From a virus (Duplodnaviria > Heunggongvirae > Uroviricota > Caudoviricetes): a DNA stretch of 37,860 bases. Below, piece after piece: positions 1 to 33,654 of this stretch. A program made the position numbers and the translations under genes. The DNA is taken from the IMG/VR virus record IMGVR_UViG_2541047762_000007. One strand, written 5' to 3'. Numbering within the stretch: the stretch's first letter is position 1; the number at the start of each line of letters is the position of its first letter. The notes beneath the pieces are model-generated. The model made no database searches. It saw only the letters and a program-made list of their open reading frames with translations, and was not told where the DNA came from.

Positions 1-933
1 TTATGCCGCCAGCACGCGGTTGCGTCCATCATTTTTCGCCCGATACAAAGCATCATCAACGCGTTTAAACAGTTCATCGATGCTTTCATTTCCTTCGTGA
101 TGCGCCACACCAATGCTGACGGTAAAGCGTGGTAAGCCCGAAATACTCACTTTTGCCACGCTTACGCGGATAGTTTCAGCCAGCGAAAGCGCGGTATCCA
201 GTGGGGTTCTTGGTAGCAATAAGACAAACTCTTCGCCTCCCCAACGAAACACCAAATCGCCTTTGCGAGCGCAACTTTCGAGGGTGCGGGCGAGGGCGCA
301 TAACACCTCATCACCTTTAGAATGCCCATAGAGATCGTTAATGTGTTTAAAACGATCGGTGTCGATGAGCAATAAGCTGTAATCCTGAGCGATGGCGAGG
401 TGCTGCATTTGGCCTGGCTCGGTAATGTGGTAAAACTGTCGCCGATTCAGTAATCCGGTCATCGCGTCATGGTGGGCAGCATGTTCCAGCTGCTCCTCCA
501 GCCGTTTTTGCTCAGTAATATCATGCACAATACATAACATGAGCTTGTCGCCATAAATTTCAATCGGCCCAGCATAGGTCTGCACATGACGAGTCGAACC
601 ATCCGCCAGTTTATGAACAAAATTCAAAGGCTTATGGCCACCGGGTAAATGCGAAATTTCATGCATGATAGGCATGACGCGTCGCCCGAGCATATTTATT
701 TCCCAGGTATGTTTCTGGCACATCGTTTCATGGTTATAGCCATAGAAATTGAGCGCGGCGAGGTTAGCATCGACGATTTGGCCATCTCGTGAGGGGTCAA
801 TCAACAACATTGGTGCAGAGTTAGTCAGAAAAAAGCGCGCATAAAAACCTTGTTTTTTGCGCTGATAATTTGCCGAGCGACTGGCTTTTAAACCCAGCGT
901 TGCCGGTGCTTCGATACCTTCGAAAATAATCAC
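1..933 (-). CDS. PAS-GGDEF diguanylate cyclase (host gene; 5' end may be interrupted by prophage)
   Basis: Translation has the GGDEF active-site motif (RWGGEEF) and a PAS-like N-terminal region. Stop codon at 1..3. First codon is GTG at 931..933, and the frame stays open upstream to 982 with no ATG. Confidence 0.85.
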   Translation of the reverse strand: MIIFEGIEAPATLGLKASRSANYQRKKQGFYARFFLTNSAPMLLIDPSRDGQIVDANLAALNFYGYNHETMCQKHTWEINMLGRRVMPIMHEISHLPGGHKPLNFVHKLADGSTRHVQTYAGPIEIYGDKLMLCIVHDITEQKRLEEQLEHAAHHDAMTGLLNRRQFYHITEPGQMQHLAIAQDYSLLLIDTDRFKHINDLYGHSKGDEVLCALARTLESCARKGDLVFRWGGEEFVLLLPRTPLDTALSLAETIRVSVAKVSISGLPRFTVSIGVAHHEGNESIDELFKRVDDALYRAKNDGRNRVLAA

Positions 934-956
934 CGGTTCTGCTTCTGTCAGCTTTC

Positions 957-1003
957 TGATGCGCCGCGCGATAAATGCACTCTATCTTGTGCGATAAATG
1001 GCA
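957..1003. repeat. Putative prophage right terminus with transposase-binding repeats
   Basis: Sequence from 957 (TGATGCGCCGCGCGATAAATGCAC...) resembles the Mu R1/R2 end as I recall it (TGAAGCGGCGCACGAAAAACGC...CGATAAATGCG) and starts with TG. GCGATAAATG occurs twice, at 968..977 and 991..1000. Confidence 0.45.
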
Positions 1004-1034
1004 TCCACGCGGCGTTTCATTATTTGAAAAAGAA

Positions 1035-1607
1035 TTACATTTCAGGTTGCGTTATGACAGTCCCAACAGGGTGGTAGCGGTAGATCGTTGACAGTCCAAT
1101 ATCATAGATAATTGCCAGCCGCTTTCTGTCATACCCTTTCTGGAGCAATCTTGCGATCTGCTCATGCTGCTCCTTCGTCAGTTTCGGGCGACGTCCTCCA
1201 ACTCTCCCTTGTGCTCGCGCAGCAGCCAGTCCTGCCAGCGTGCGCTCAACTATCAGTTCACGCTCCATTTCTGCCAGTGCACCCATCATATGAAAAAAGA
1301 ACCTTCCCATCGGAGTGCTGGTATCGATTGAATCCGTCAGACTGCGAAAATTGACACCTTTTGCGCGTAGCTCTTCTGTGAGAGCAATGAGGTGTTTCAT
1401 TCTTCTACCCAACCGATCCAGCTTCCAGACCACCAATGTATCCCCTCTTTTAAGGCACTTTAAAGCGCGTTTCAGGCCTGGTCGTTCCGACTTGGTTCCG
1501 CTCATTTTGTCCTCAAAAATCTGTTCACATCCTGCGCACATTAATGCATTGCGTTGCAAATCTGTGTTTTGGTCATTTGTTGACACACGTATGTAGCCAA
1601 TCAGCAT
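1035..1607 (-). CDS. gin: Gin/Pin/Hin-family serine DNA invertase
   Basis: Translation from the ATG at 1607 (MLIGYIRVSTNDQNTDLQRNAL...GRRPKLT...) closely matches my recollection of Mu Gin and e14 Pin. The ORF-track start at 1736 is probably an upstream artefact. Confidence 0.9.
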   Translation of the reverse strand: MLIGYIRVSTNDQNTDLQRNALMCAGCEQIFEDKMSGTKSERPGLKRALKCLKRGDTLVVWKLDRLGRRMKHLIALTEELRAKGVNFRSLTDSIDTSTPMGRFFFHMMGALAEMERELIVERTLAGLAAARAQGRVGGRRPKLTKEQHEQIARLLQKGYDRKRLAIIYDIGLSTIYRYHPVGTVITQPEM

Positions 1608-1673
1608 TAAAAATACTCCCTTTTGAGTGGTTAAAGTACTGAGATAATGTGGGGAGGATTTGAGAGATAAACG

Positions 1674-1889
1674 TTGGTTTAGGAGAAGGCTCGGCGCTAC
1701 CCGTTGGTGTGCCTGTTCCGTGGCCCACCGCCACACCGCCAGCAGGCTGGTTAAAGTGCGACGGGCGCGCCTTTACAAAAGAACAATATCCTGTTCTGGC
1801 CAGAGTCTACCCGACCCTCCGTCTTCCCGATTTACGCGGTGAGTTTATCCGTGGATGGGACGACGGGCGCAAAGTTGATACAGGACGTA
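1674..1889. repeat. Left inverted repeat of invertible tail-fibre segment (gix-like site at 1664..1687)
   Basis: About 216 bp here is the near-identical reverse complement of 3061..3279. Its outer end (gagataaacgTTGGTTTAGGAGAA) resembles the Gin/Hin crossover half-site consensus. Confidence 0.7.
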
Positions 1890-2191
1890 AGTTGCTGTCC
1901 GCACAAGGGGCAACGCTGTTAAGAACAGCAATGCTGGATTATTATAACCAGGACACTACGGGAACCTCGGGGATAGTCGGCATGGGATTCAACAATGAAG
2001 ATTCCATTACAGACCTTCGTGAGGGCAGCTTTAAAATGCCGGACGGGACAACATTCAGCAATCCTGCCATGGCAATGTCAGACAATGGTATGCAGGCTAC
2101 TATTCTGACCTCTATCAGAAGCGGGTATGCGAAGGGTATCACTGTCAGACCCCGTAGCATTGCACTTAATTACATTGTGAGGGCAGTTTAA
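1709..2191 (+). CDS. Alternative tail-fibre C-terminal cassette (Sv'-like), promoterless in current orientation
   Basis: The first ~60 aa are nearly identical to the region of the 2812..4398 fibre that begins ~150 aa from its C-terminus (PVPWPTATPPAGWL...LRLPDLRGEFIRGWD), then diverge. It lies inside the invertible segment on the opposite strand. Confidence 0.7.
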   Translation: MPVPWPTATPPAGWLKCDGRAFTKEQYPVLARVYPTLRLPDLRGEFIRGWDDGRKVDTGRKLLSAQGATLLRTAMLDYYNQDTTGTSGIVGMGFNNEDSITDLREGSFKMPDGTTFSNPAMAMSDNGMQATILTSIRSGYAKGITVRPRSIALNYIVRAV

Positions 2192-2805
2192 TGAGTAACA
2201 CTGCAGTTCTGGATGAAAACGGTATCGCCACTGTAGCGGGCGATATCACTGTATATCACTATGACGAGGAAACCCGGGAATACACCTCATCCTCTGTGGA
2301 GTATCTCGCCCTTGGGGTGGGTACTCCGGCACATTCGTGCGCCGATGCACCGCCGGAAGCAATTTCGGGTTACGTGGTTTGCCGGACTGCCACGCTGAAC
2401 GGGTGGGAGCATGTGCCTGATCACCGCGGCGAGACGGTATACAGCACGGAGAACGGTAACCCCGTTCTGATTACCCAACCGGGTGATTACCCGGCGGACA
2501 CCACCACAAAACAGCCAGCCACGCCATGGGATACCTGGAACGGTGAGGCGTGGGTAACCGATACTGAACGGCAGCGAGCCGCAGAACTGGAGGTTGCCAG
2601 ACAGCAACGCCAGCAACGGGTGAAACAGGCGATGGCGTCCGTCGATCTTATCAACCTCAAACTGCGTGCTGGTCGCAGTCTGAAACCAGAAGAAACGGCA
2701 AAACTGAACGCCGTGCTGGATTATATCGACGAGCTGAACGCACTGGATATCAGCAAGGCACCTGAAATCAGCTGGCCGGAAGCGCCACTGGCGCTTGCCG
2801 GCTGA
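2191..2805 (+). CDS. Tail fibre assembly protein (Tfa/U-like)
   Basis: Position directly after the alternative fibre cassette (TAATG overlap), ~200 aa, composition typical of lambda Tfa / Mu U chaperones. Confidence 0.75.
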   Translation: MSNTAVLDENGIATVAGDITVYHYDEETREYTSSSVEYLALGVGTPAHSCADAPPEAISGYVVCRTATLNGWEHVPDHRGETVYSTENGNPVLITQPGDYPADTTTKQPATPWDTWNGEAWVTDTERQRAAELEVARQQRQQRVKQAMASVDLINLKLRAGRSLKPEETAKLNAVLDYIDELNALDISKAPEISWPEAPLALAG

Positions 2806-2811
2806 ACGGTA

Positions 2812-4398
2812 TCACGCCGCCCTCACGATATAGTTAAATGCGATATTGCGGGGGCGAGCTGATACATAAGCCCACCAGTCATATCTTTGTGCACCTTTAG
2901 AGGATGCATCAAATATCCACTTTTTGCCATTTATGACCCCCAGTTGATTAGAGGTTAAAGCGTCACCAAATCCGTATTGTGTAGAGCCGAGCGAACTGAT
3001 ATCTCCGGTATTATTATCATCAAAACCGGATACGATAGTCCCTTCCTGAAATGAAAGTACCGTACGCCCGGTATCAACCTTGCGACCACCGTCCCATCCA
3101 CGGATAAACTCACCGCGCAAATCGGGAAGACGGAGGGTCGGGTAGACTCTGGCCAGAACAGGATATTGTTCTTTGGTGAACGTAGCTCCGTTGCACTGTA
3201 ACCAGCCTGCTGGCGGTGTGGCGGTGGGCCATGGAACCGGTACACCAACAGGCAATGCAGAGCCTTCCCCCAAACCAAGGTAATTGAGGACATCTTTTAT
3301 ACTGCCCTTAGCGATAATAGCGCGACCAATAGCTGTAAGGGTTGCCAGCGCTGCGCGGTCTGCTCCGGTAAAATAAGGCAACCGATCTGCTGCAGTGGCA
3401 AGTCCTGCCAGAGCAGTGAGCGTGGCATCTGCCGGTTGTTTTCCGTTTGCCAGATCGTATGCAGCCTTGACGGCCTTTGGTGTGGCGGCCAGCGTTTCAG
3501 ACGTGCTGTTGATGGCGCTGCTCAATTGTACGGTGCCTTTTGCCGTCAGCGAGGCAGCAGGCACTCCCGTTATCTGACTCCACGGGTGAGTGTGGCTGAC
3601 GGGCGCCTTGCCGGCTGCAAGGTCGTATGCAGCCTTGACGGCCTTTGGTGTGGCGGCCAGCGTTTCAGACGTGCTGTTGATGGCGCTGCTCAATTGTACG
3701 GTGCCTTTTGCCGTCAGCGAGGCAGCAGGCACTCCCGTTATCTGACTCCACGGGTGAGTGTGGCTGACGGGCGCCTTGCCGGCTGCAAGGTCGTATGCAG
3801 CCTTGACGGCCTTTGGTGTGGCGGCCAGCGTTTCAGACGTGCTGTTGATGGCACTGCTCAGTTGTACGATCCCTTTACGGGTCGTTGTTGCATCCTGGGC
3901 TGTGTATTTTCCCCGGGCCAGATCATACGCGATTTTCACAGCCTTCGGCGTGGCAGCCTCAGTTTCTGATTGACTGTCCGTGGCACTGCTCAGCTGTACG
4001 GTGCCTTTTGCCGTCAGCGAGGCAGCAGGCACTCCCGTTATCTGACTCCACGGGTGAGTGTGACTGACGGGTGCCTTGCCGGCTGCAAGGTCGTATGCAG
4101 CCTTGACGGCTTTTGGTGTGGCGGCCAGCGTTTCAGAGGTGCTGTTGGTGGCACTGCTCAGTTGGGTGAACCCCTTAGCTGTCAGTGTCGCGTCCGGGTG
4201 GTTACGGGAACGTACGTGTTCAGCCAGTGACTGTGCGGCTTCCTCCGTTTTTTTCTTCAGCCATTTCGTCCTGTTTGCCAGTTGCCGGGGGGCTCGATTT
4301 GATATCCCGTCTGCACCACCCAGAACCGGATCTGATGTCTCCAGTTGATAGATATTTTCTTCCCACTTTTCTGTTTCATTCAGGTTTCCCATAATCAA
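2812..4398 (-). CDS. Tail fibre protein with internal tandem repeats
   Basis: 528-aa ORF with repeated fibre motifs (TAKGTVQLSSAxxSTSETLAATPKAVKAAYDLA, SHTHPW). C-terminal part lies inside the invertible segment. Position matches Mu S. Confidence 0.9.
   Translation of the reverse strand: MIMGNLNETEKWEENIYQLETSDPVLGGADGISNRAPRQLANRTKWLKKKTEEAAQSLAEHVRSRNHPDATLTAKGFTQLSSATNSTSETLAATPKAVKAAYDLAAGKAPVSHTHPWSQITGVPAASLTAKGTVQLSSATDSQSETEAATPKAVKIAYDLARGKYTAQDATTTRKGIVQLSSAINSTSETLAATPKAVKAAYDLAAGKAPVSHTHPWSQITGVPAASLTAKGTVQLSSAINSTSETLAATPKAVKAAYDLAAGKAPVSHTHPWSQITGVPAASLTAKGTVQLSSAINSTSETLAATPKAVKAAYDLANGKQPADATLTALAGLATAADRLPYFTGADRAALATLTAIGRAIIAKGSIKDVLNYLGLGEGSALPVGVPVPWPTATPPAGWLQCNGATFTKEQYPVLARVYPTLRLPDLRGEFIRGWDGGRKVDTGRTVLSFQEGTIVSGFDDNNTGDISSLGSTQYGFGDALTSNQLGVINGKKWIFDASSKGAQRYDWWAYVSARPRNIAFNYIVRAA
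3061..3290. repeat. Right inverted repeat of invertible tail-fibre segment (gix-like site at 3265..3290)
   Basis: Reverse complement matches 1674..1889. TTCCCCCAAACCAAGG at 3265..3280 is the inverted partner of the left site. Confidence 0.7.
3440..4200. repeat. 168-bp (56-aa) tandem repeats within tail fibre gene
   Basis: Three near-identical units are in register at ~3455, 3623 and 3791, followed by two more diverged units. The plus-strand shadow ORF 3436..3969 shows the same period. Confidence 0.85.
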
Positions 4399-4973
4399 CT
4401 GCTCCCGTGGTTATAACTGCCATCATGGATGGCAGTATTGTTATAGCGAATGGCCACAGACTGATACTCCAGGCTGGCCAGATGGCAGCGGGCCGGTGCA
4501 AATGCAGCCAGCGTCTGACGCAGCATCGCGGCCTGATCGTTAGTAATGGGCTGTTTCAGAATAACGCGATAAACTGCCCAGGCGGCTGCATCTCCATGAA
4601 CAAACAGTCCGTTATAGCTGCGATTGCCGTCGTAACTGAGACGACCTGTGCCTTCAATCAGATCCACTTCACCAAAGCCAAAACGGCGGATAACTTCCCG
4701 GATTGACCACGGCGTCCCTTTATACCGGTGCAGTTCGATGGCTGCTTTTATAAGCATGCGGCGAACATCGTCCGATTCCGCCAGCTCCCAGCCATCGCCA
4801 GACAGTGAGAACTGCTCGCCCAGCCATGGCAGCGCGGAACTGTCGACGATATCGACGAGAAAGACCATCAGTACGCTCAGGTCGATGTTATCCAGCCGTC
4901 CTGCCAGTCTTCCCAGCGTCCTGAGACTGATATCACCCTCAAGCGGTGGCGGGAGTTGTAATGGCTCAGTCAT
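4395..4973 (-). CDS. Baseplate protein (P2 gpI / Mu gp48-like)
   Basis: Size and position between the baseplate J-like gene and the tail fibre; overlaps its neighbours. Confidence 0.7.
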   Translation of the reverse strand: MTEPLQLPPPLEGDISLRTLGRLAGRLDNIDLSVLMVFLVDIVDSSALPWLGEQFSLSGDGWELAESDDVRRMLIKAAIELHRYKGTPWSIREVIRRFGFGEVDLIEGTGRLSYDGNRSYNGLFVHGDAAAWAVYRVILKQPITNDQAAMLRQTLAAFAPARCHLASLEYQSVAIRYNNTAIHDGSYNHGSS

Positions 4974-6069
4974 CAGACACTCCAGTCATGTTAAGAGTGA
5001 TTGCCGTACAGTTTGCCCATTCGTTTTCTGCCACCACCCGCAGTGCCGGTGTCACCAGTTCAACCTGGTACACCCCGGAAACGGACAATGCACTGATAAT
5101 CTGGCTGGGGACAATATCGCGCCCCAGCGTGGCGGCACGTGATGCCACCCAGTTCTGTATGGCGCTGTTAGCGGCATCTTTTACAGACCTGGCATCCTGA
5201 TCACGATAGATCGTAATCCTGGCTTCAATGGTGTAATCCACCTTCACTGGTGTTTTAGCCCGCACTGTATCAGTGAGTGGCCTGACTTTCTCATCAGAGC
5301 AGAAACTCTCTACCAGCGTGAGAACACCGCCGTCCGGCAGACCGGTACTGAGCAGCGGATACAGATCTACGGTCCCGGGAACCGGGGAAAGCACAGCAAC
5401 ATCGACAATGTTGGGATGGGCCTGCATGGCATGAAAGCGGTATGCGCCACGGCTTCCGGCATTGGTGAATGACTCCGGGGCCAGCCTGATACGCTCCCGG
5501 AGCCTGTCATCGTCTTCCTGTTCTGAACCGCCGGAACTGGCCGTCAGATTGCTCACCAGCAGGTCGACGTTATCAATCTCATCGAGTAACTGACTGACCT
5601 GCGCAGGTTGCCAGCCGTTACCAGCGGTACCGGGTTCGGTACAGGTGGACGTGACATTGACCAGCAGCAATCCGGCCTTCAGTACCACATCTGTATCGGT
5701 GGCAAAAATAACGCTGTCGGAAGCGCTGACGCGGGTGCCTGCCGGGATCAGCACATCAATGGCCAGTGCCTCATCTACGGAGAACTGGAGCGTGGTGGTG
5801 GCAGGCTGCGCGGCAAGACGGTATACACCGACCAGTTCACCGAGGTAATCAATCATCGGCTCACGGGCAAAGGCGACCAGATTCTGCTTTGCTGCCTCCT
5901 GTACCGCAACCCTGACCAGCATTTCGCGATAGGCCCACAGATCAATCAGCAGACGTTCTGCCTGTGCCGGGTACAGCGTTTTGCCGGTATCCGCTTCATA
6001 CTTCGCAATCATTTCTGCCGTGATTTTGTCGGCATCGCGTTCAATAAAATCGGGTTCTGTCAGCGCCAT
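4966..6069 (-). CDS. Baseplate J-like protein (Mu gp47 / P2 gpJ-like)
   Basis: 367 aa, position and composition match baseplate J family; translationally coupled to neighbours. Confidence 0.8.
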   Translation of the reverse strand: MALTEPDFIERDADKITAEMIAKYEADTGKTLYPAQAERLLIDLWAYREMLVRVAVQEAAKQNLVAFAREPMIDYLGELVGVYRLAAQPATTTLQFSVDEALAIDVLIPAGTRVSASDSVIFATDTDVVLKAGLLLVNVTSTCTEPGTAGNGWQPAQVSQLLDEIDNVDLLVSNLTASSGGSEQEDDDRLRERIRLAPESFTNAGSRGAYRFHAMQAHPNIVDVAVLSPVPGTVDLYPLLSTGLPDGGVLTLVESFCSDEKVRPLTDTVRAKTPVKVDYTIEARITIYRDQDARSVKDAANSAIQNWVASRAATLGRDIVPSQIISALSVSGVYQVELVTPALRVVAENEWANCTAITLNMTGVSDD

Positions 6070-29779: not shown

Positions 29780-29789
29780 GGAGTAATCA

Positions 29790-30704
29790 ATGGGACGCAC
29801 CAAATCACCCGTTAACACTGAACTGAATGTTGAGGTTCCGCTGTCAGATAACATCAATGTCAATTTGAACGCTATGACACAGCATCGCATGGAAATTATG
29901 CAGCAGTTTGGTGATGGACTGCCTTATGAACGTGATCGCATTGTTCACGAAGCACGTTTTTATATGGCGCAGAGTGCTGAATCTATGCTGGAAGCAGGTA
30001 AGCGGCTGATCATCTTAAAAGAAAATGAGCCACACGGTGATTTTACAAACATTTTAGAAAATGAACTCGGACTTGCACCACAAGTTGCTCGCCGCATGAT
30101 GCAAGCCAGTATGAAGTTTTTGGGAGAAGGTGATGAGCCAACAAAACGCTCAACGTTGAGCGTTTTGGGGAAAGCCAAACTGTACGACCTGATGGTTCTG
30201 GATAATGAAGAACTTGATGAATTGGCCGACGGCGGCACAGTTGCCGGCCTGACGCTTGACGACGTTGATCGCATGTCAGTACGTGAATTGCGTCAGGCCC
30301 TGCGCGAAGCGCGCGAAACCAACGCAGCACAACAGCGCGTACTCGCCGACAAAAATGAAAAAATAGATTCACTCTCCACCAGACTGGAGAAGAAATCCCG
30401 TATTCAGCCGCCTGAGCCTGATGAGGAGGTTAAGAAGCTGCGGGCGGAAGTAACAGCATTAGCGGTTGAGGCGGAATCTGCTATCGCCGTCCGACTGTCC
30501 AGCGCTTTTGAGACGCTGTGCGCATATTGTGCTGAAAACATGATTGATACCCCCAGAGACTTCATGGCAGGCCTGGTCTGTCAACTGGAAAGCACAGCGC
30601 GTAGCCTGCGCTCCACATTTGACCTGCCGGACGAGCCAACAGGCAATGCAGCGCCTTCATGGCTGACTGAGCCGACGCCACAGATTAACGGGCTGGAGGC
30701 ATAA
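29790..30704 (+). CDS. Early protein of unknown function
   Basis: 304-aa ORF coupled to the upstream gene and immediately preceding the transposase. Confidence 0.55.
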   Translation: MGRTKSPVNTELNVEVPLSDNINVNLNAMTQHRMEIMQQFGDGLPYERDRIVHEARFYMAQSAESMLEAGKRLIILKENEPHGDFTNILENELGLAPQVARRMMQASMKFLGEGDEPTKRSTLSVLGKAKLYDLMVLDNEELDELADGGTVAGLTLDDVDRMSVRELRQALREARETNAAQQRVLADKNEKIDSLSTRLEKKSRIQPPEPDEEVKKLRAEVTALAVEAESAIAVRLSSAFETLCAYCAENMIDTPRDFMAGLVCQLESTARSLRSTFDLPDEPTGNAAPSWLTEPTPQINGLEA

Positions 30705-30707
30705 CCA

Positions 30708-32477
30708 ATGAATGCTGCCCTGACTGAACGACTGGTTTATGTCGCCCGCGCGGCACGTGACGCGGGGCATGGTAAACGCGGTGCAATATACGACGCTGCC
30801 TGTGCTGAACTTGGCATGTCCCGCGCCACTCTGCTGCGCAGGCTGAAGGAGGTCTCTGTGACTGATAAACGCAAAAAACGCGCCGATGCCGGGCGCAGCG
30901 CCCTGACCCGCGACGAAGCCGCGCTGATATCTGCCACACTGCGTGAGGCCACCCGCAAGAACGGTAAGCGTCTCTATTCCATCGCGGATGCAGTGGAAAC
31001 CCTGCGGGCTAACGGCTTTATCTCCGCAGGCAGAACAGATGAAACCACCGGTGAGTTTTTCCCGTTGTCCGAAGATGCCATCAGCCGAGCCCTGCGTAAC
31101 TATGGCCTGCACCCGGAACAACTGGATGCCCCTGCACCACATACTGAAGTGGCCAGTCTGCATCCCAATCATGTCTGGCAGATTGATGCCTCGCTCTGCA
31201 CGCTTTACTACCTGAGTAATGGACACAAAGGACTGCAGGTGATGGACAGCGCGAAGTTCTACAAGAACAAGCCCGCTAACCTTGCCCGTATCGCCAGTGA
31301 CCGCGTGTGGAGTTACGAGATTACCGACCATGCCAGCGGCTGGATTTACGTTGAGTATGTGACGGGTGCGGAATCCGGTGAGAACCTGTGTTCTGTGCTT
31401 ATCAACGCCATGCAGGAGCGTGGCGGCGCAGACGTGCTGCACGGCGTGCCAAAAATACTCTATCTCGACCCCGGCTCGGCAAACACCGCGGGTATGACGA
31501 AAAACATGTGCCGCTCACTGGGCATTGACCTGATAGCGCACAAGCCGCATAACGCCCGCGCCACCGGACAGGTGGAAAAGGCGCGTGACATTATCGAACG
31601 CAAGCTGGAGCCGGGTCTGAAGTTCCGGCCGGTTCACAGTCTGGAAGAACTCAACGCGCTGGCCGCGAAATGGCGCAGCCACTTTAACGCCACGGCTGTT
31701 CACAGCCGCCACGGTAAAACCCGCACGGATATCTGGCTGAAGATTACTACTGAGCAGCTGAAAAAAGCGCCTTCCGTTGAGGTATGTCGTGAACTGGCTG
31801 TGGCGGCACCAGAACTCCGCAAAGTCACGCCAAAACTTCGTGTCTCGTTCCGGGGCACTGAATTTGACGTATCAACGGTACCGGGCGTACTGGTCGGTGA
31901 AAAACTGATGATTACCCGTAACCCGTGGCGCAGCGATGTGGCACAGGTGGTTCTGACCGGTGAGGACGGCCACGAGACGTTCTTCCTGGTCGAAGAGGTC
32001 AGAAAGAACGAGTTTGGCTTTGCTGAAGGCGCGGCGGTATTTGGCGAAAGTTACAAAGCCCTGCCGGAAACACCGGCGCAGACGGCGGCAAAAGAAACTG
32101 AAGCGCTGGTCACCGGTACAGACAACGCCACAGATGCAGCTGCCGCACGCAAGGCGAAGGCGCTGCCGTTCGGCGGGCGGCTTGACCCGTATAAACATAT
32201 TGATGACGCCACACTTCCGGCCTATATGCCGAAGCGCGGTCAGGCCTCTGACGTACGCGGGCCGCGCACTGAACAACGTCCCATGACTCATGTGGAGGCC
32301 GCGAAAGCCCTGCGCGATAAGTTCAGCGCCGACGGCCTTACCTGGACGCCGGAACATTACCGCCAGTTAACGGCACAGTACCCGGACGGCGTACCGGAAG
32401 CCGCACTGGATGAAGTCATGGCCACGCTGACCACGCCGGCACGCAGCAGTGTTATCAGCATTGTTAACGGCAACTGA
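30708..32477 (+). CDS. DDE transposase (Mu A-like)
   Basis: 589 aa with N-terminal HTH-like region and an integrase-type catalytic core (HVWQIDAS, LYLDPGSANTA, ATGQVEKA); followed by a MuB-like ATPase. Confidence 0.8.
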   Translation: MNAALTERLVYVARAARDAGHGKRGAIYDAACAELGMSRATLLRRLKEVSVTDKRKKRADAGRSALTRDEAALISATLREATRKNGKRLYSIADAVETLRANGFISAGRTDETTGEFFPLSEDAISRALRNYGLHPEQLDAPAPHTEVASLHPNHVWQIDASLCTLYYLSNGHKGLQVMDSAKFYKNKPANLARIASDRVWSYEITDHASGWIYVEYVTGAESGENLCSVLINAMQERGGADVLHGVPKILYLDPGSANTAGMTKNMCRSLGIDLIAHKPHNARATGQVEKARDIIERKLEPGLKFRPVHSLEELNALAAKWRSHFNATAVHSRHGKTRTDIWLKITTEQLKKAPSVEVCRELAVAAPELRKVTPKLRVSFRGTEFDVSTVPGVLVGEKLMITRNPWRSDVAQVVLTGEDGHETFFLVEEVRKNEFGFAEGAAVFGESYKALPETPAQTAAKETEALVTGTDNATDAAAARKAKALPFGGRLDPYKHIDDATLPAYMPKRGQASDVRGPRTEQRPMTHVEAAKALRDKFSADGLTWTPEHYRQLTAQYPDGVPEAALDEVMATLTTPARSSVISIVNGN

Positions 32478-32487
32478 GGAGGAAAAC

Positions 32488-33654
32488 ATGCTGGTACTGA
32501 AGCAGCAACTGAAAGAGGCCCGTATCTCACAGGCGGTGGTGGCGAGAGCTGTCGATGTTTCTGAGGCCACGCTGGCCCAGATTGTGAATCATAACGCGTG
32601 GCCCCGCACCCGCCCCGGAGAAGTGCGCCGGCGTCTTGCGTCCTGGCTGGAAAGTCAGGGGATTGATACAACGAAGAGTTTTGATGCTGTACAGGTCGCG
32701 GCCACGCCCCGTACAGCGGGTACCACAGACAAAACGAGCCTCAGTGAGGAAGAGAATATGTTACTCAAAAAACAGGTGTTATTTCCAGCAACCAAAAAAG
32801 CGTTTGGTCTTTTCCGTGACCCGTTCGCCGATGAAGCCATGCAGGGTTCTGATGATGTGTTCACCACCCCGGACATCCGCTATGTGCGTGAGGCGCTGTA
32901 CCAGACAGCCCGTCATGGTGGATTTATGGCCGTCATCGGTGAGTCCGGTGCGGGCAAATCCACGCTGCGCCGCGACCTGACTGAACGTATCAACCGCGAG
33001 AATGCGCCGGTAATTGTTATCGAGCCATACGTCATCGCCATGGAAGACAACGATGTGAAAGGAAAAACCCTGAAGGCTGCAGCGATTGCCGAAGCCATTA
33101 TCAGTACCATCGCACCACTGGAAAGCATCAGACGCAGTCAGGACGCCCGCTTTCGCCAGTTGCATCGCGTCCTGAAAGACAGCAGCCAGGCGGGGTTCAG
33201 CCACGTTCTGGTGATTGAGGAGGCCCACAGTCTGCCCGTTCCGACACTGAAACACCTCAAACGCTTTTTTGAGCTGGAGTCCGGTTTCAAAAAGCTGCTG
33301 TCCATTGTGCTGATTGGCCAGCCGGAACTGGCGACAAAACTGTCTGAACGCAATATGGAAGTCCGTGAAGTCGTTCAGCGCTGTGAGGTGGTCGAACTTC
33401 TGCCTCTGGACAATAACCTTGAAGAATTTCTGACGTTCAAACTGCAACGGGCCGGTAAACAACTGACGGACATTATGGACGCCAGCGCAGTGGATGCCAT
33501 ACGTGCCCGCCTGAGCAATCCGGGAAGTCATCGTAAAAATATGGTCAGCCTGCTGTATCCGCTGGCCGTCAGTAACCTGGTAATAGCCGCCATGAATCTG
33601 GCCGCTGAAATCGGGGTTCCACAGGTCAACGCTGACGTTGTCAAAGGGGTTTAA
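32488..33654 (+). CDS. Transposition ATPase (Mu B-like AAA+)
   Basis: Walker A GESGAGKST, Walker B-like VLVIEEAH, N-terminal HTH-like region. Start taken at ATG 32488 after GAGGAGG. Confidence 0.8.
   Translation: MLVLKQQLKEARISQAVVARAVDVSEATLAQIVNHNAWPRTRPGEVRRRLASWLESQGIDTTKSFDAVQVAATPRTAGTTDKTSLSEEENMLLKKQVLFPATKKAFGLFRDPFADEAMQGSDDVFTTPDIRYVREALYQTARHGGFMAVIGESGAGKSTLRRDLTERINRENAPVIVIEPYVIAMEDNDVKGKTLKAAAIAEAIISTIAPLESIRRSQDARFRQLHRVLKDSSQAGFSHVLVIEEAHSLPVPTLKHLKRFFELESGFKKLLSIVLIGQPELATKLSERNMEVREVVQRCEVVELLPLDNNLEEFLTFKLQRAGKQLTDIMDASAVDAIRARLSNPGSHRKNMVSLLYPLAVSNLVIAAMNLAAEIGVPQVNADVVKGV

Follow-up and report, generated by a model that had tools for sequence, protein, structure and literature searches.

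The closest described relatives of the fiber tips analyzed here are found in phage T4. According to PMC6957217, the collar D10 of gp37 is formed by residues 811-881 and 1010-1026, with D11 inserted into D10, and PMC12724248 assigns residues 811-860 and 1016-1026 (the last 11 residues) to a trimeric collar. The gp37 crystal structure was solved without a chaperone, and the C-terminal residues are part of the collar in it (PMC6957217, PMC12724248). The listed helpers of gp37 are gp38 and gp57A, not a Tfa (PMC3004832, PMC6957217), and for gp12 the same list names gp57A as the sole folding helper (PMC3004832). The N-domains of Tfa proteins bind the distal part of the fiber, according to the summary in PMC9608196 of the Mu structure (North et al. 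2019).

Other phages exchange fiber C-termini by DNA inversion, as in the Din family of segments (Mu G/Gin, P1 C/Cin, e14 P/Pin and p15B Min), where a serine invertase adjoins the segment that is swapped. Mu and P1 have one tfa per alternative tip, and the lambda Tfa can stand in for T4 gp38. The e14 element also has one tfa per alternative tip (PMC12529663).

Organization of the invertible segment

We analyzed a 37,860-nucleotide stretch of Caudoviricetes DNA (IMG/VR record IMGVR_UViG_2541047762_000007), hereafter called the window, which contains a fiber locus that resembles the Din-family segments. Its features are listed below, with the expressed fiber C-terminus called Sv and the silent one Sv'.

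1035..1607, minus strand: serine DNA invertase of the Pin/Min/Cin/Gin type (Pfam Resolvase, E 8e-51; HTH_7, E 1e-12)
1671..1899, plus strand: left arm of a 229-nt inverted repeat, encoding the Sv' collar N-half (Pfam Collar PF07484 match)
1674..1689, unstranded: left crossover core TTGGTTTAGGAGAAGG, a single mismatch relative to the P-segment repeat TTGGTTTGGGAGAAGG of e14 (PMC12529663)
1682..2191, plus strand: Sv', silent alternative fiber C-terminus (N-half ~1682-1912, insertion ~1913-2146, closing tail)
2150..2188, plus strand: Sv' tail PRSIALNYIVRAV, probable collar closing segment (alignments, AF2 model)
2191..2805, plus strand: tfa (Pfam Caudo_TAP PF02413, E 6e-27, 94.9 bits against a cutoff of 22.1)
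2812..4398, minus strand: expressed tail-fiber gene, shaft plus Sv collar cassette (Pfam Phage_fiber_2 in five stretches, and Collar)
2815..2853, minus strand: Sv tail PRNIAFNYIVRAA, probable collar closing segment (gp37/gp12/phiTE alignment)
2857..3039, minus strand: Sv variable insertion, presumed receptor-binding excursion (unalignable to Sv')
3040..3270, minus strand: Sv collar N-half (translation, Pfam Collar; within the right repeat arm 3053-3281)
3263..3278, unstranded: right crossover core CCTTCCCCCAAACCAA, one mismatch from the e14 repeat CCTTCTCCCAAACCAA

The invertase gene adjoins the invertible segment, as it does in e14, Mu and P1, and the inverted crossover cores lie at the segment borders, inside the fiber reading frame. 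A repeat search gave 86% complementarity between the arms at 1671-1899 and 3053-3281. Genes for tail protein I and baseplate J are located upstream of the expressed fiber gene. When we inverted 1671-3281 in silico, Sv' was fused in frame to the fiber shaft, and both states occur naturally: among 5426 complete E. coli genomes, the junction of the window was found in 137 and the inverted junction in 239. E. coli 83972 is 100% identical to the window at the junction. In L087, an annotated example of the flipped state, the sequence switches partner exactly at the left crossover core.

The tfa gene is co-oriented with Sv', overlaps the Sv' stop codon (TAATG) and converges on the expressed fiber gene across a 6-nt gap. 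The Sv' tail codons GTG AGG GCA double as a GAGG Shine-Dalgarno sequence, 9 nt before the tfa start. A search of the whole window with a Tfa HMM found no second tfa, 2191-2805 being the sole match, and its product is 56% identical to Tfas of two relatives, L088 and L090, whose genes lie directly behind Sv-type tips or occur together with them. A consensus scan of the plus strand from 900 to 3400 found no sigma-70-like promoter for tfa, and an alignment across relatives of the spacer between invertase and cassette contained nothing convincing as one. In the state seen in the window, the sole tfa is antisense to the fiber operon, and 137 complete E. coli genomes are in that state.

The shared C-terminal tail

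The first-pass annotation of this locus had observed that the two fiber C-termini converge on almost the same last ~13 residues, and our alignments bear this out, with 10 of 13 residues identical after an unalignable middle. The expressed fiber ORF (2812-4398, minus strand) has the C-terminus PRNIAFNYIVRAA (more fully ...SARPRNIAFNYIVRAA, with tail codons at 2815-2853 and the stop codon at 2812-2814), and the silent cassette ORF (1682-2191, plus strand) has the C-terminus PRSIALNYIVRAV (more fully, for 1682/1709-2191, ...TVRPRSIALNYIVRAV, with tail codons at 2150-2188 and the stop codon at 2189-2191). The interval 2152-2850, within which the annotation had placed its observation, spans the tfa gene and the tails on either side of it, although it falls 2-3 nt short of the full length of each tail. 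The three substitutions are conservative (N/S, F/L and A/V), and the arginine preceding the 13-residue tail is also common to Sv and Sv'. In a BLASTP comparison of the two cassettes, the first ~75 residues are near-identical, the next ~75-85 are gapped and essentially unalignable, and RPR[NS]IA[FL]NYIVRA then follows. At the DNA level the tails are identical at 28 of 39 nt, and different codons are used at 6 of the 10 identical residues, which indicates that the likeness is held at the protein level and does not reflect a recent DNA copy.

The tail motif is also present in homologs, as a comparison called for by the annotation revealed. Used alone as a query, the Sv collar N-half recovered 9627 proteins, and in a set of 152 proteins retrieved with only the N-half as query, 111 have the motif P.N[IV]AFNY[IV]V plus three residues as their C-terminal end; the proteins among the 152 with other ends are mostly truncated or multi-collar. 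The motif also recurs internally: multi-collar proteins, like the phiTE short fiber, have a copy behind every collar N-half. Over 53 homologous tips, mean identity is 70% in the N-half, 20% in the insert and 87% in the tail, and the amino acid values for six cassettes of L090 are 90%, 22% and 95%, respectively. The tails of the L090 cassettes are 81% identical in nucleotides versus 95% in amino acids, with AGA or AGG and otherwise varied codons. Conservation of the tail is independent of tfa proximity: the match to the consensus is 13.3/14 in 24 tips without a tfa within 4 kb and 13.0/14 in tips with a tfa nearby.

The collar fold and rival explanations of the tail

Both cassettes consist of a conserved N-half and a conserved closing segment, separated by a hypervariable insertion, and the Pfam Collar family PF07484 matches the N-half of each (54.8 and 56.0 bits, cutoff 24). 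In a phmmer search against the PDB, the Sv tail aligned to the extreme C-terminus of T4 gp37, VKNIAFNYIVRLA (2xgf 230-242, which is gp37 1014-1026), and to T4 gp12 512-524, RPWNISLNYIIK; these gp37 and gp12 alignments of the tail alone are short, at 11-13 residues. The Sv tail also aligned to the phiTE STF sequence RPKNIAVMYIIK, and the phiTE short fiber entry 9CUY matches by sequence, with only residues 3-92 modeled and the collar outside them. As in a discontinuous domain, an N-I-A/S-x-N-Y-I-V/I-R/K segment returns after the inserted receptor-binding region.

AF2 monomer models of both cassettes have high confidence in the N-half, which collapses in the insert and recovers at the terminal β-strand, for an overall pLDDT that is low (63 and 53). 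The tail is strand 156-160 in the Sv model; in the Sv' model the N-half has a pLDDT of 81-93, the insertion is below 50 and the tail strand, 163-167, is at ~79. The top Foldseek hit in the PDB was gp37 (2xgf; E 3e-6, probability 1.00), followed by the gp12 entries 5iv5 and 1ocy, for a monomer model (pLDDT 63, TM 0.37) that is confident only in the N-half and tail.

We consider it highly probable that each alternative fiber end is one complete collar domain, in which the tail is the closing strand that packs with the N-half. The chain would build the N-terminal ~75 residues of the collar first (GVPVPWP...LPDLRGEFIRGWD...), then depart as a hypervariable excursion of ~60-85 residues bearing receptor specificity, and come back. 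The last ~13 residues (RPRN-IAFNYIV-RAA) would re-enter as a β-strand that completes the collar and closes the loop that carries the variable tip, a proposed topology that is the one solved for T4 gp37 and T4 gp12. On this model, conservation of the tail would reflect its need to pack, within a trimeric collar, against an N-half that is conserved to the same degree, and we infer the same packing and trimer role for the tail in the fiber protein of the window. The shared tail is therefore real but ordinary, an element of a known kind, namely the strand with which an already described collar fold ends. Against this collar reading stand the low overall confidence of the monomer models, the shortness of the gp37 and gp12 tail alignments and the conservation of nearly all tail positions, including the charged R-P-R and R. 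A simple core strand would not require so much conservation, and an additional partner, such as a neighboring subunit or Tfa, could be involved.

The earlier suggestion that the tail is a trimerization element points in the right direction, because the tail probably belongs to a trimeric collar module, but it is not a free-standing tag on two domains. Nor is it a separate docking peptide attached to different domains, as had also been proposed; the T4 gp37/gp12 alignment and the published gp37 limits make it the second segment of a discontinuous domain. Burial in the fold core, which the annotation had named as an outcome that would speak against a docking or trimerization element, arguably describes the tail, in the sense that it is integral to the fold.

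Two other origins of the likeness find little room in these data. A DNA-level cause, whether a tract of recombination or gene conversion or a signal such as the tfa ribosome-binding site, has in its favor the GAGG within the Sv' tail codons, the TAATG stop overlap and the location of the cassette N-half within the 229-nt inverted repeat. However, the tails lie outside that repeat and far from the crossover cores at 1674-1689 and 3263-3278, Sv retains the motif with no tfa behind it, only 28/39 nt are shared with six synonymous differences among the ten identical residues, and the L090 cassettes again agree less in nucleotides than in amino acids. We rejected a DNA-level cause, which is very unlikely given the synonymous differences and the position of the tails. 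Chance resemblance of two C-termini has nothing in its favor except their short length of 13 residues, and against it stand the 10 identities, the shared preceding arginine and the motif at the end of 111/152 proteins retrieved with a query that lacked it; this family-wide conservation refutes chance, whose probability we regard as negligible.

A more serious rival sees the tail first of all as a linear motif onto which the Tfa chaperone docks, which would let one Tfa grasp any tip, with any structural role in the fiber being secondary. Fiber folding is thought to begin C-terminally, and tip-specific chaperones have been proposed to gather C-terminal ends (PMC3004832); this idea also agrees with the binding of Tfa N-domains to the distal fiber in the summary cited above (PMC9608196), with the presence of a single tfa beside two, three or seven collar cassettes (the window, L001 and L090, respectively), with a Tfa N-domain that does not co-vary with the insert and with conservation on both faces of the tail strand. 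Yet the motif is kept equally well in the 24 tips without a tfa within 4 kb, occurs internally in multi-collar proteins and is found both in T4 gp12, listed with gp57A only (PMC3004832), and in T4 gp37, for which gp38 and gp57A, and not a Tfa, are listed. The gp37 residues, moreover, belong to the collar in a crystal structure solved without a chaperone, and a search of the PDB by sequence found no structure of a Tfa-collar complex. Because the tail is equally conserved with or without a nearby tfa, completion of the fold is a sufficient explanation that does not call for Tfa docking; we judge docking as the main function of the tail to be improbable.

Two further identities were considered and rejected. 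A C-terminal intramolecular chaperone of the Peptidase_S74 type is a self-cleaving domain of ~100-150 residues, as in T5 pb1 and K1F endosialidase, whereas the conserved stretch after the insert is just 13 residues long and Pfam shows no domain of that type. Tips of the Mu S/U type were set aside, since in a search by sequence neither the cassettes nor the Tfa of the window had a detectable match to any PDB chain of the Mu Tfa-fiber complex. A search of NCBIfam gave nothing useful for the tips or Tfa.

Tfa and comparison with described systems

Within the Tfa family of the window, the N-domain tracks the collar and shows no co-variation with the insert. Conservation is higher in the N-domain (44%) than in the C-domain (36%), which reverses the order in the general description of Tfa proteins. 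The Mu Tfa-fiber complex (5YVQ) contains a two-domain Tfa with a Caudo_TAP C-terminal region, like the Tfa of the window, and the N-domain of the latter is expected to bind the distal fiber. Since the collar scaffold is common to all cassettes, one collar-tracking Tfa could plausibly serve each of them. The earlier proposal that one Tfa serves both variants gains indirect support from comparisons, namely from the tracking of the collar by the N-domain and from the seven collar cassettes that accompany one tfa in the P1-like relative L090. If one Tfa does serve both, the likely reason lies in the entire collar scaffold that they share, not in the 13 residues by themselves. That the single Tfa is a generic chaperone, reading the invariant collar (N-half and tail) and not the insert and so serving two, three or seven tips, is a tentative proposal that we hold to be possible rather than probable. 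If it were true, the tfa in its antisense state would need an unrecognized promoter on the invertase side, or Sv would fold without Tfa, and the layout would differ from that of Mu, P1 and e14, where each tip has its own chaperone. Only this part of the analysis, one tfa common to several cassettes and antisense in the state of 137 genomes, raises a new testable question, that of chaperone specificity and expression.

The collar reading accounts for a pattern repeated across annotated "phage tail protein" fragments, thousands of them, which have the same start, an unrelated middle and the same last 13 residues. As the crossover site is just upstream of the collar N-half, inversion exchanges N-half, insert and tail together as one self-contained domain, and the swap unit of fiber inversion switches would be one whole collar domain with an exchangeable insert. 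For fiber engineering, this suggests that chimeras be joined outside the collar, or that the insert alone be exchanged with the N-half and tail kept together.

Among solved structures, T4 gp37 (2XGF) resembles the window tips in its N-half, which is 40-50% alike with a PxGW...PDxRG pattern, in its NIAFNYIVR-x-A end and in a receptor-binding part that is an out-and-back insertion between collar segments. Its insert is a ~130-residue iron-binding needle, in contrast to inserts of 61 and ~80 residues without HxH motifs in the window; its listed helpers are gp38 and gp57A, where the window has a Tfa-family gene; and T4 lacks the inversion switch that the window has. T4 gp12 (1OCY, 1H6W/5LYE and 5IV5) likewise has its receptor-binding head inserted between a collar N-half and a terminal RPWNISLNYIIK strand, but it is far more distant (E 0.02-0.1), its head is zinc-binding and knitted, and it is folded with gp57A only. 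Compared with other inversion switches, the window has a single tfa, which lies between two cassettes and is antisense to the fiber operon in one state, whereas e14, Mu, P1 and the Mu-like relative L088 have one tfa per alternative tip. The P1-like relative L090 has seven collar cassettes in a Min-like array and, like the window, one tfa.

Two fibre ends with a common tail

The feature examined here lies at the left end of the window, in and around an invertible segment. The crossover cores were compared with the e14 P-segment repeat sequences of PMC12529663.

Features of the invertible segment and its surroundings (positions in the window)
1-933, minus: host PAS-GGDEF gene at the left end of the window, which the tail module abuts
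1035-1607, minus: serine invertase (Resolvase and HTH_7)
1671-1899 and 3053-3281: arms of a 229-nt inverted repeat (86% complementarity) bounding the invertible segment
1674-1689: left crossover core TTGGTTTAGGAGAAGG, one mismatch relative to the e14 P-segment repeats
3263-3278: right crossover core CCTTCCCCCAAACCAA, one mismatch relative to the e14 P-segment repeats
1682-2191, plus: silent fibre 3' end (Sv'), inside the segment
2191-2805, plus: Tfa gene, overlapping the Sv' stop (TAATG), its end 6 nt from the fibre stop
2812-4398, minus: expressed fibre gene, its 3' end (Sv) inside the segment
Beyond the segment, minus: tail protein I and baseplate J, prophage tail genes alongside the fibre gene

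Within the fibre shaft, Phage_fiber_2 repeats form a tandem array with a 168-nt unit (3448-3876; 2.6 copies, 97% identity), and fibre ORF length varies when the same module is found in different strains. The tail module occupies other chromosomal sites in other strains, beside yebS, grxD and barA. The prophage itself appears to be a Mu-like or transposable one: its region 29787-33654 carries an rve-family transposase (30705-32477) and an AAA+ MuB-like gene (32431-33654).

The expressed and silent fibres end in ...SARPRNIAFNYIVRAA and ...TVRPRSIALNYIVRAV, respectively. When the two cassettes were aligned by BLASTP, about 75 near-identical residues were followed by 75-85 unalignable residues and then by the common tail, in which 10 of 13 residues are identical, confirming the first-pass annotation's observation that both C-termini close on the same short sequence. 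The tail DNA is identical at 28 of 39 positions, different codons are used at 6 of the 10 conserved residues, and both tails fall beyond the inverted-repeat arms; the resemblance is thus genuine, and it is the protein sequence that is kept. Within 2177-2193, the codons GTG AGG GCA of the Sv' tail also provide the Shine-Dalgarno sequence GAGG, some 9 nt ahead of the tfa start codon (ATG). Together with the TAATG stop/start overlap, this suggests that tfa translation may be coupled to Sv' in the inverted state.

The tail as part of the collar domain

To avoid circularity, we left the tail out and used the 77-residue N-half alone as a query against 1.84 billion representative proteins. This search gave 9627 matches, 152 of which were examined. 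The motif P-x-N-[IV]-A-F-N-Y-[IV]-V plus three residues forms the C-terminal end of 111 of these 152 proteins, so that the tail is present in homologous fibres, and close variants occur in two more. Seventeen proteins are truncated soon after the N-half, and eleven remaining ones, several of which look frameshifted, carry no motif. Nine multi-collar or very long proteins were set aside; in two of these, P0128 and P0198, the motif recurs internally, and P0198 has it (as PRNIAVMWCI or a similar sequence) behind all three of its collar repeats. In a column-wise profile, the N-half is 80-100% conserved, the insert near zero and RPRNIAFNYIVRAA 90-100%.

In a PDB sequence search, the N-half aligned to gp37, the tip of the T4 long fibre (2XGF), and PRNIAFNYIVRAA matched, as a separate short stretch, the extreme gp37 C-terminus VKNIAFNYIVRLA. 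The same search found RPWNISLNYIIK at the end of T4 gp12 and, inside the phiTE short fibre (residues 292-303 of 554), RPKNIAVMYIIK. Two papers state the domain limits of gp37 derived from its crystal structure. In one, collar D10 comprises residues 811-881 and 1010-1026, with needle D11 as 'an insertion into domain D10' (PMC6957217); in the other, the parts that 'constitute the trimeric collar domain' are residues 811-860 and 1016-1026 (PMC12724248). The final 11 residues of gp37 read exactly NIAFNYIVRLA, so these limits identify the tail as the second of two segments of a discontinuous collar domain, the one that closes it, and the 'variable domain' as an insertion between them.

When each cassette was modelled as a monomer with AlphaFold2, pLDDT was about 80-93 in the N-half, below 50 in the insert and about 77-79 again in a terminal beta-strand (Sv residues 156-160, Sv' residues 163-167), the pattern expected for an insertion-in-collar topology. 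A Foldseek search of the PDB with the Sv model returned 2XGF at the top (E 3e-6) and gp12 entries next, a predicted fold match that is supportive rather than decisive because the models are weak overall. The first-pass interpretation is partly supported: as a trimerisation element, the tail is placed by the gp37 limits structurally within the trimeric collar, but it is not a separate tag. Its conservation is what this known fold would lead one to expect.

Tfa and its fibre tips

The tail had also been proposed as a chaperone-docking element. We fetched 80 loci from other Enterobacterales, containing 100 tail-bearing collar tips, 98 of them with enough downstream sequence. A Tfa gene lies immediately downstream of 56 of the 98; 7 (E. 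coli, Sodalis, Xenorhabdus, Photorhabdus) share the window's arrangement of one convergent Tfa, and 35 have no adjacent Tfa. The tail is equally conserved across all of these classes (identity to consensus: Tfa downstream = 13.0/14; Tfa elsewhere in the locus = 13.6/14; Tfa absent within about 4 kb = 13.3/14). For gp12, which bears the motif, gp57A is the only folding helper listed (PMC3004832). As the tail is conserved regardless of Tfa, in gp12 and at internal sites, docking is unnecessary to explain its conservation; it may be an additional, unproven role.

Whether a single Tfa might serve both variants was addressed with 53 non-redundant tip-Tfa pairs from loci L001-L084. Mean pairwise identity was 70% for the collar N-half, 20% for the insert and 87% for the tail of the tips, and 44% and 36% for the N- and C-domains of Tfa, an order opposite to the usual description of a variable N-domain and conserved C-domain. 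The Spearman correlation of Tfa N-domain similarity was 0.52 (partial 0.50) with collar N-half similarity but 0.18 (partial 0.11) with insert similarity, so the Tfa N-domain tracks the former and not the latter. Inserts only 10-34% identical to that of Sv' occur in tips whose Tfa has 56-63% N-domain identity to the Tfa of the window. Three cassettes share one tfa in E. coli strain N21 (L001:2164-3745), and six silent cassettes plus an expressed one share a single tfa, 56% identical to the window's, in the P1/p15B-like element L090 (2357-6462). In both arrays the N-half and tail are common and the insert differs (L090: N-half 90%, insert 22%, tail 95% amino-acid versus 81% nucleotide identity). 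These data lend indirect support to one Tfa serving both variants, and would suit a Tfa that recognises the scaffold shared by all cassettes, whether or not it touches the tail; shared ancestry of linked genes could contribute to the correlation.

A Tfa gene lies directly behind Sv-type tips in the Enterobacter locus L004 (46% identical to the window's overall, 56% in the N-domain) and in the Mu-like E. coli prophage L088 (56% identical), so Sv, judging from these sequences, is probably the client of a Tfa, and the one in the window is of the right kind. Opposite the Sv-type collar tip, L004 (5483-5896, minus) and L088 (4776-5174, minus) carry Gp53-like_C tips of unrelated fold, with no tfa in L004 and their own short tfa in L088; the collar scaffold therefore need not be common to cassette pairs.

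In the window's orientation, the sole tfa of the segment and of the whole window runs antisense to the fibre operon. Neither a consensus scan of the plus strand (900-3400) nor spacer alignment with relatives revealed a consensus promoter for it. After inversion in silico, the fibre frame continues through Sv', which forms its end, and tfa comes next. In a set of 5426 complete E. coli genomes both junctions are frequent: 137 genomes have the window's arrangement and 239 the inverted one. At its junction the window matches strain 83972 with 100% identity. In the antisense state, Sv might fold without Tfa, Tfa might come from an unrecognised promoter or another prophage, or phage yield might be poor.

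Relation to known fibre systems

Three L090 inserts contain HxH motifs (SHSHY, GSHYHN and EDHAHG; cassettes 3987-4418, 4459-4887 and 5504-5971) that recall the histidines with which T4 gp37 and gp12 bind metal; neither insert of the window contains an HxH motif. Homology of the inversion regions of Mu, P1, e14 and p15B with the fibre genes of T4, P2 and lambda was reportedly described in the early 1990s (Sandmeier et al. 1992; Haggard-Ljungquist et al. 1992). By the comparisons made here, the element belongs both to the tail-collar fibre tips (T4 gp37, gp12) and to the Din-invertase fibre switches (Mu, P1, e14, p15B), and its single shared tfa is its only departure from the textbook layout.
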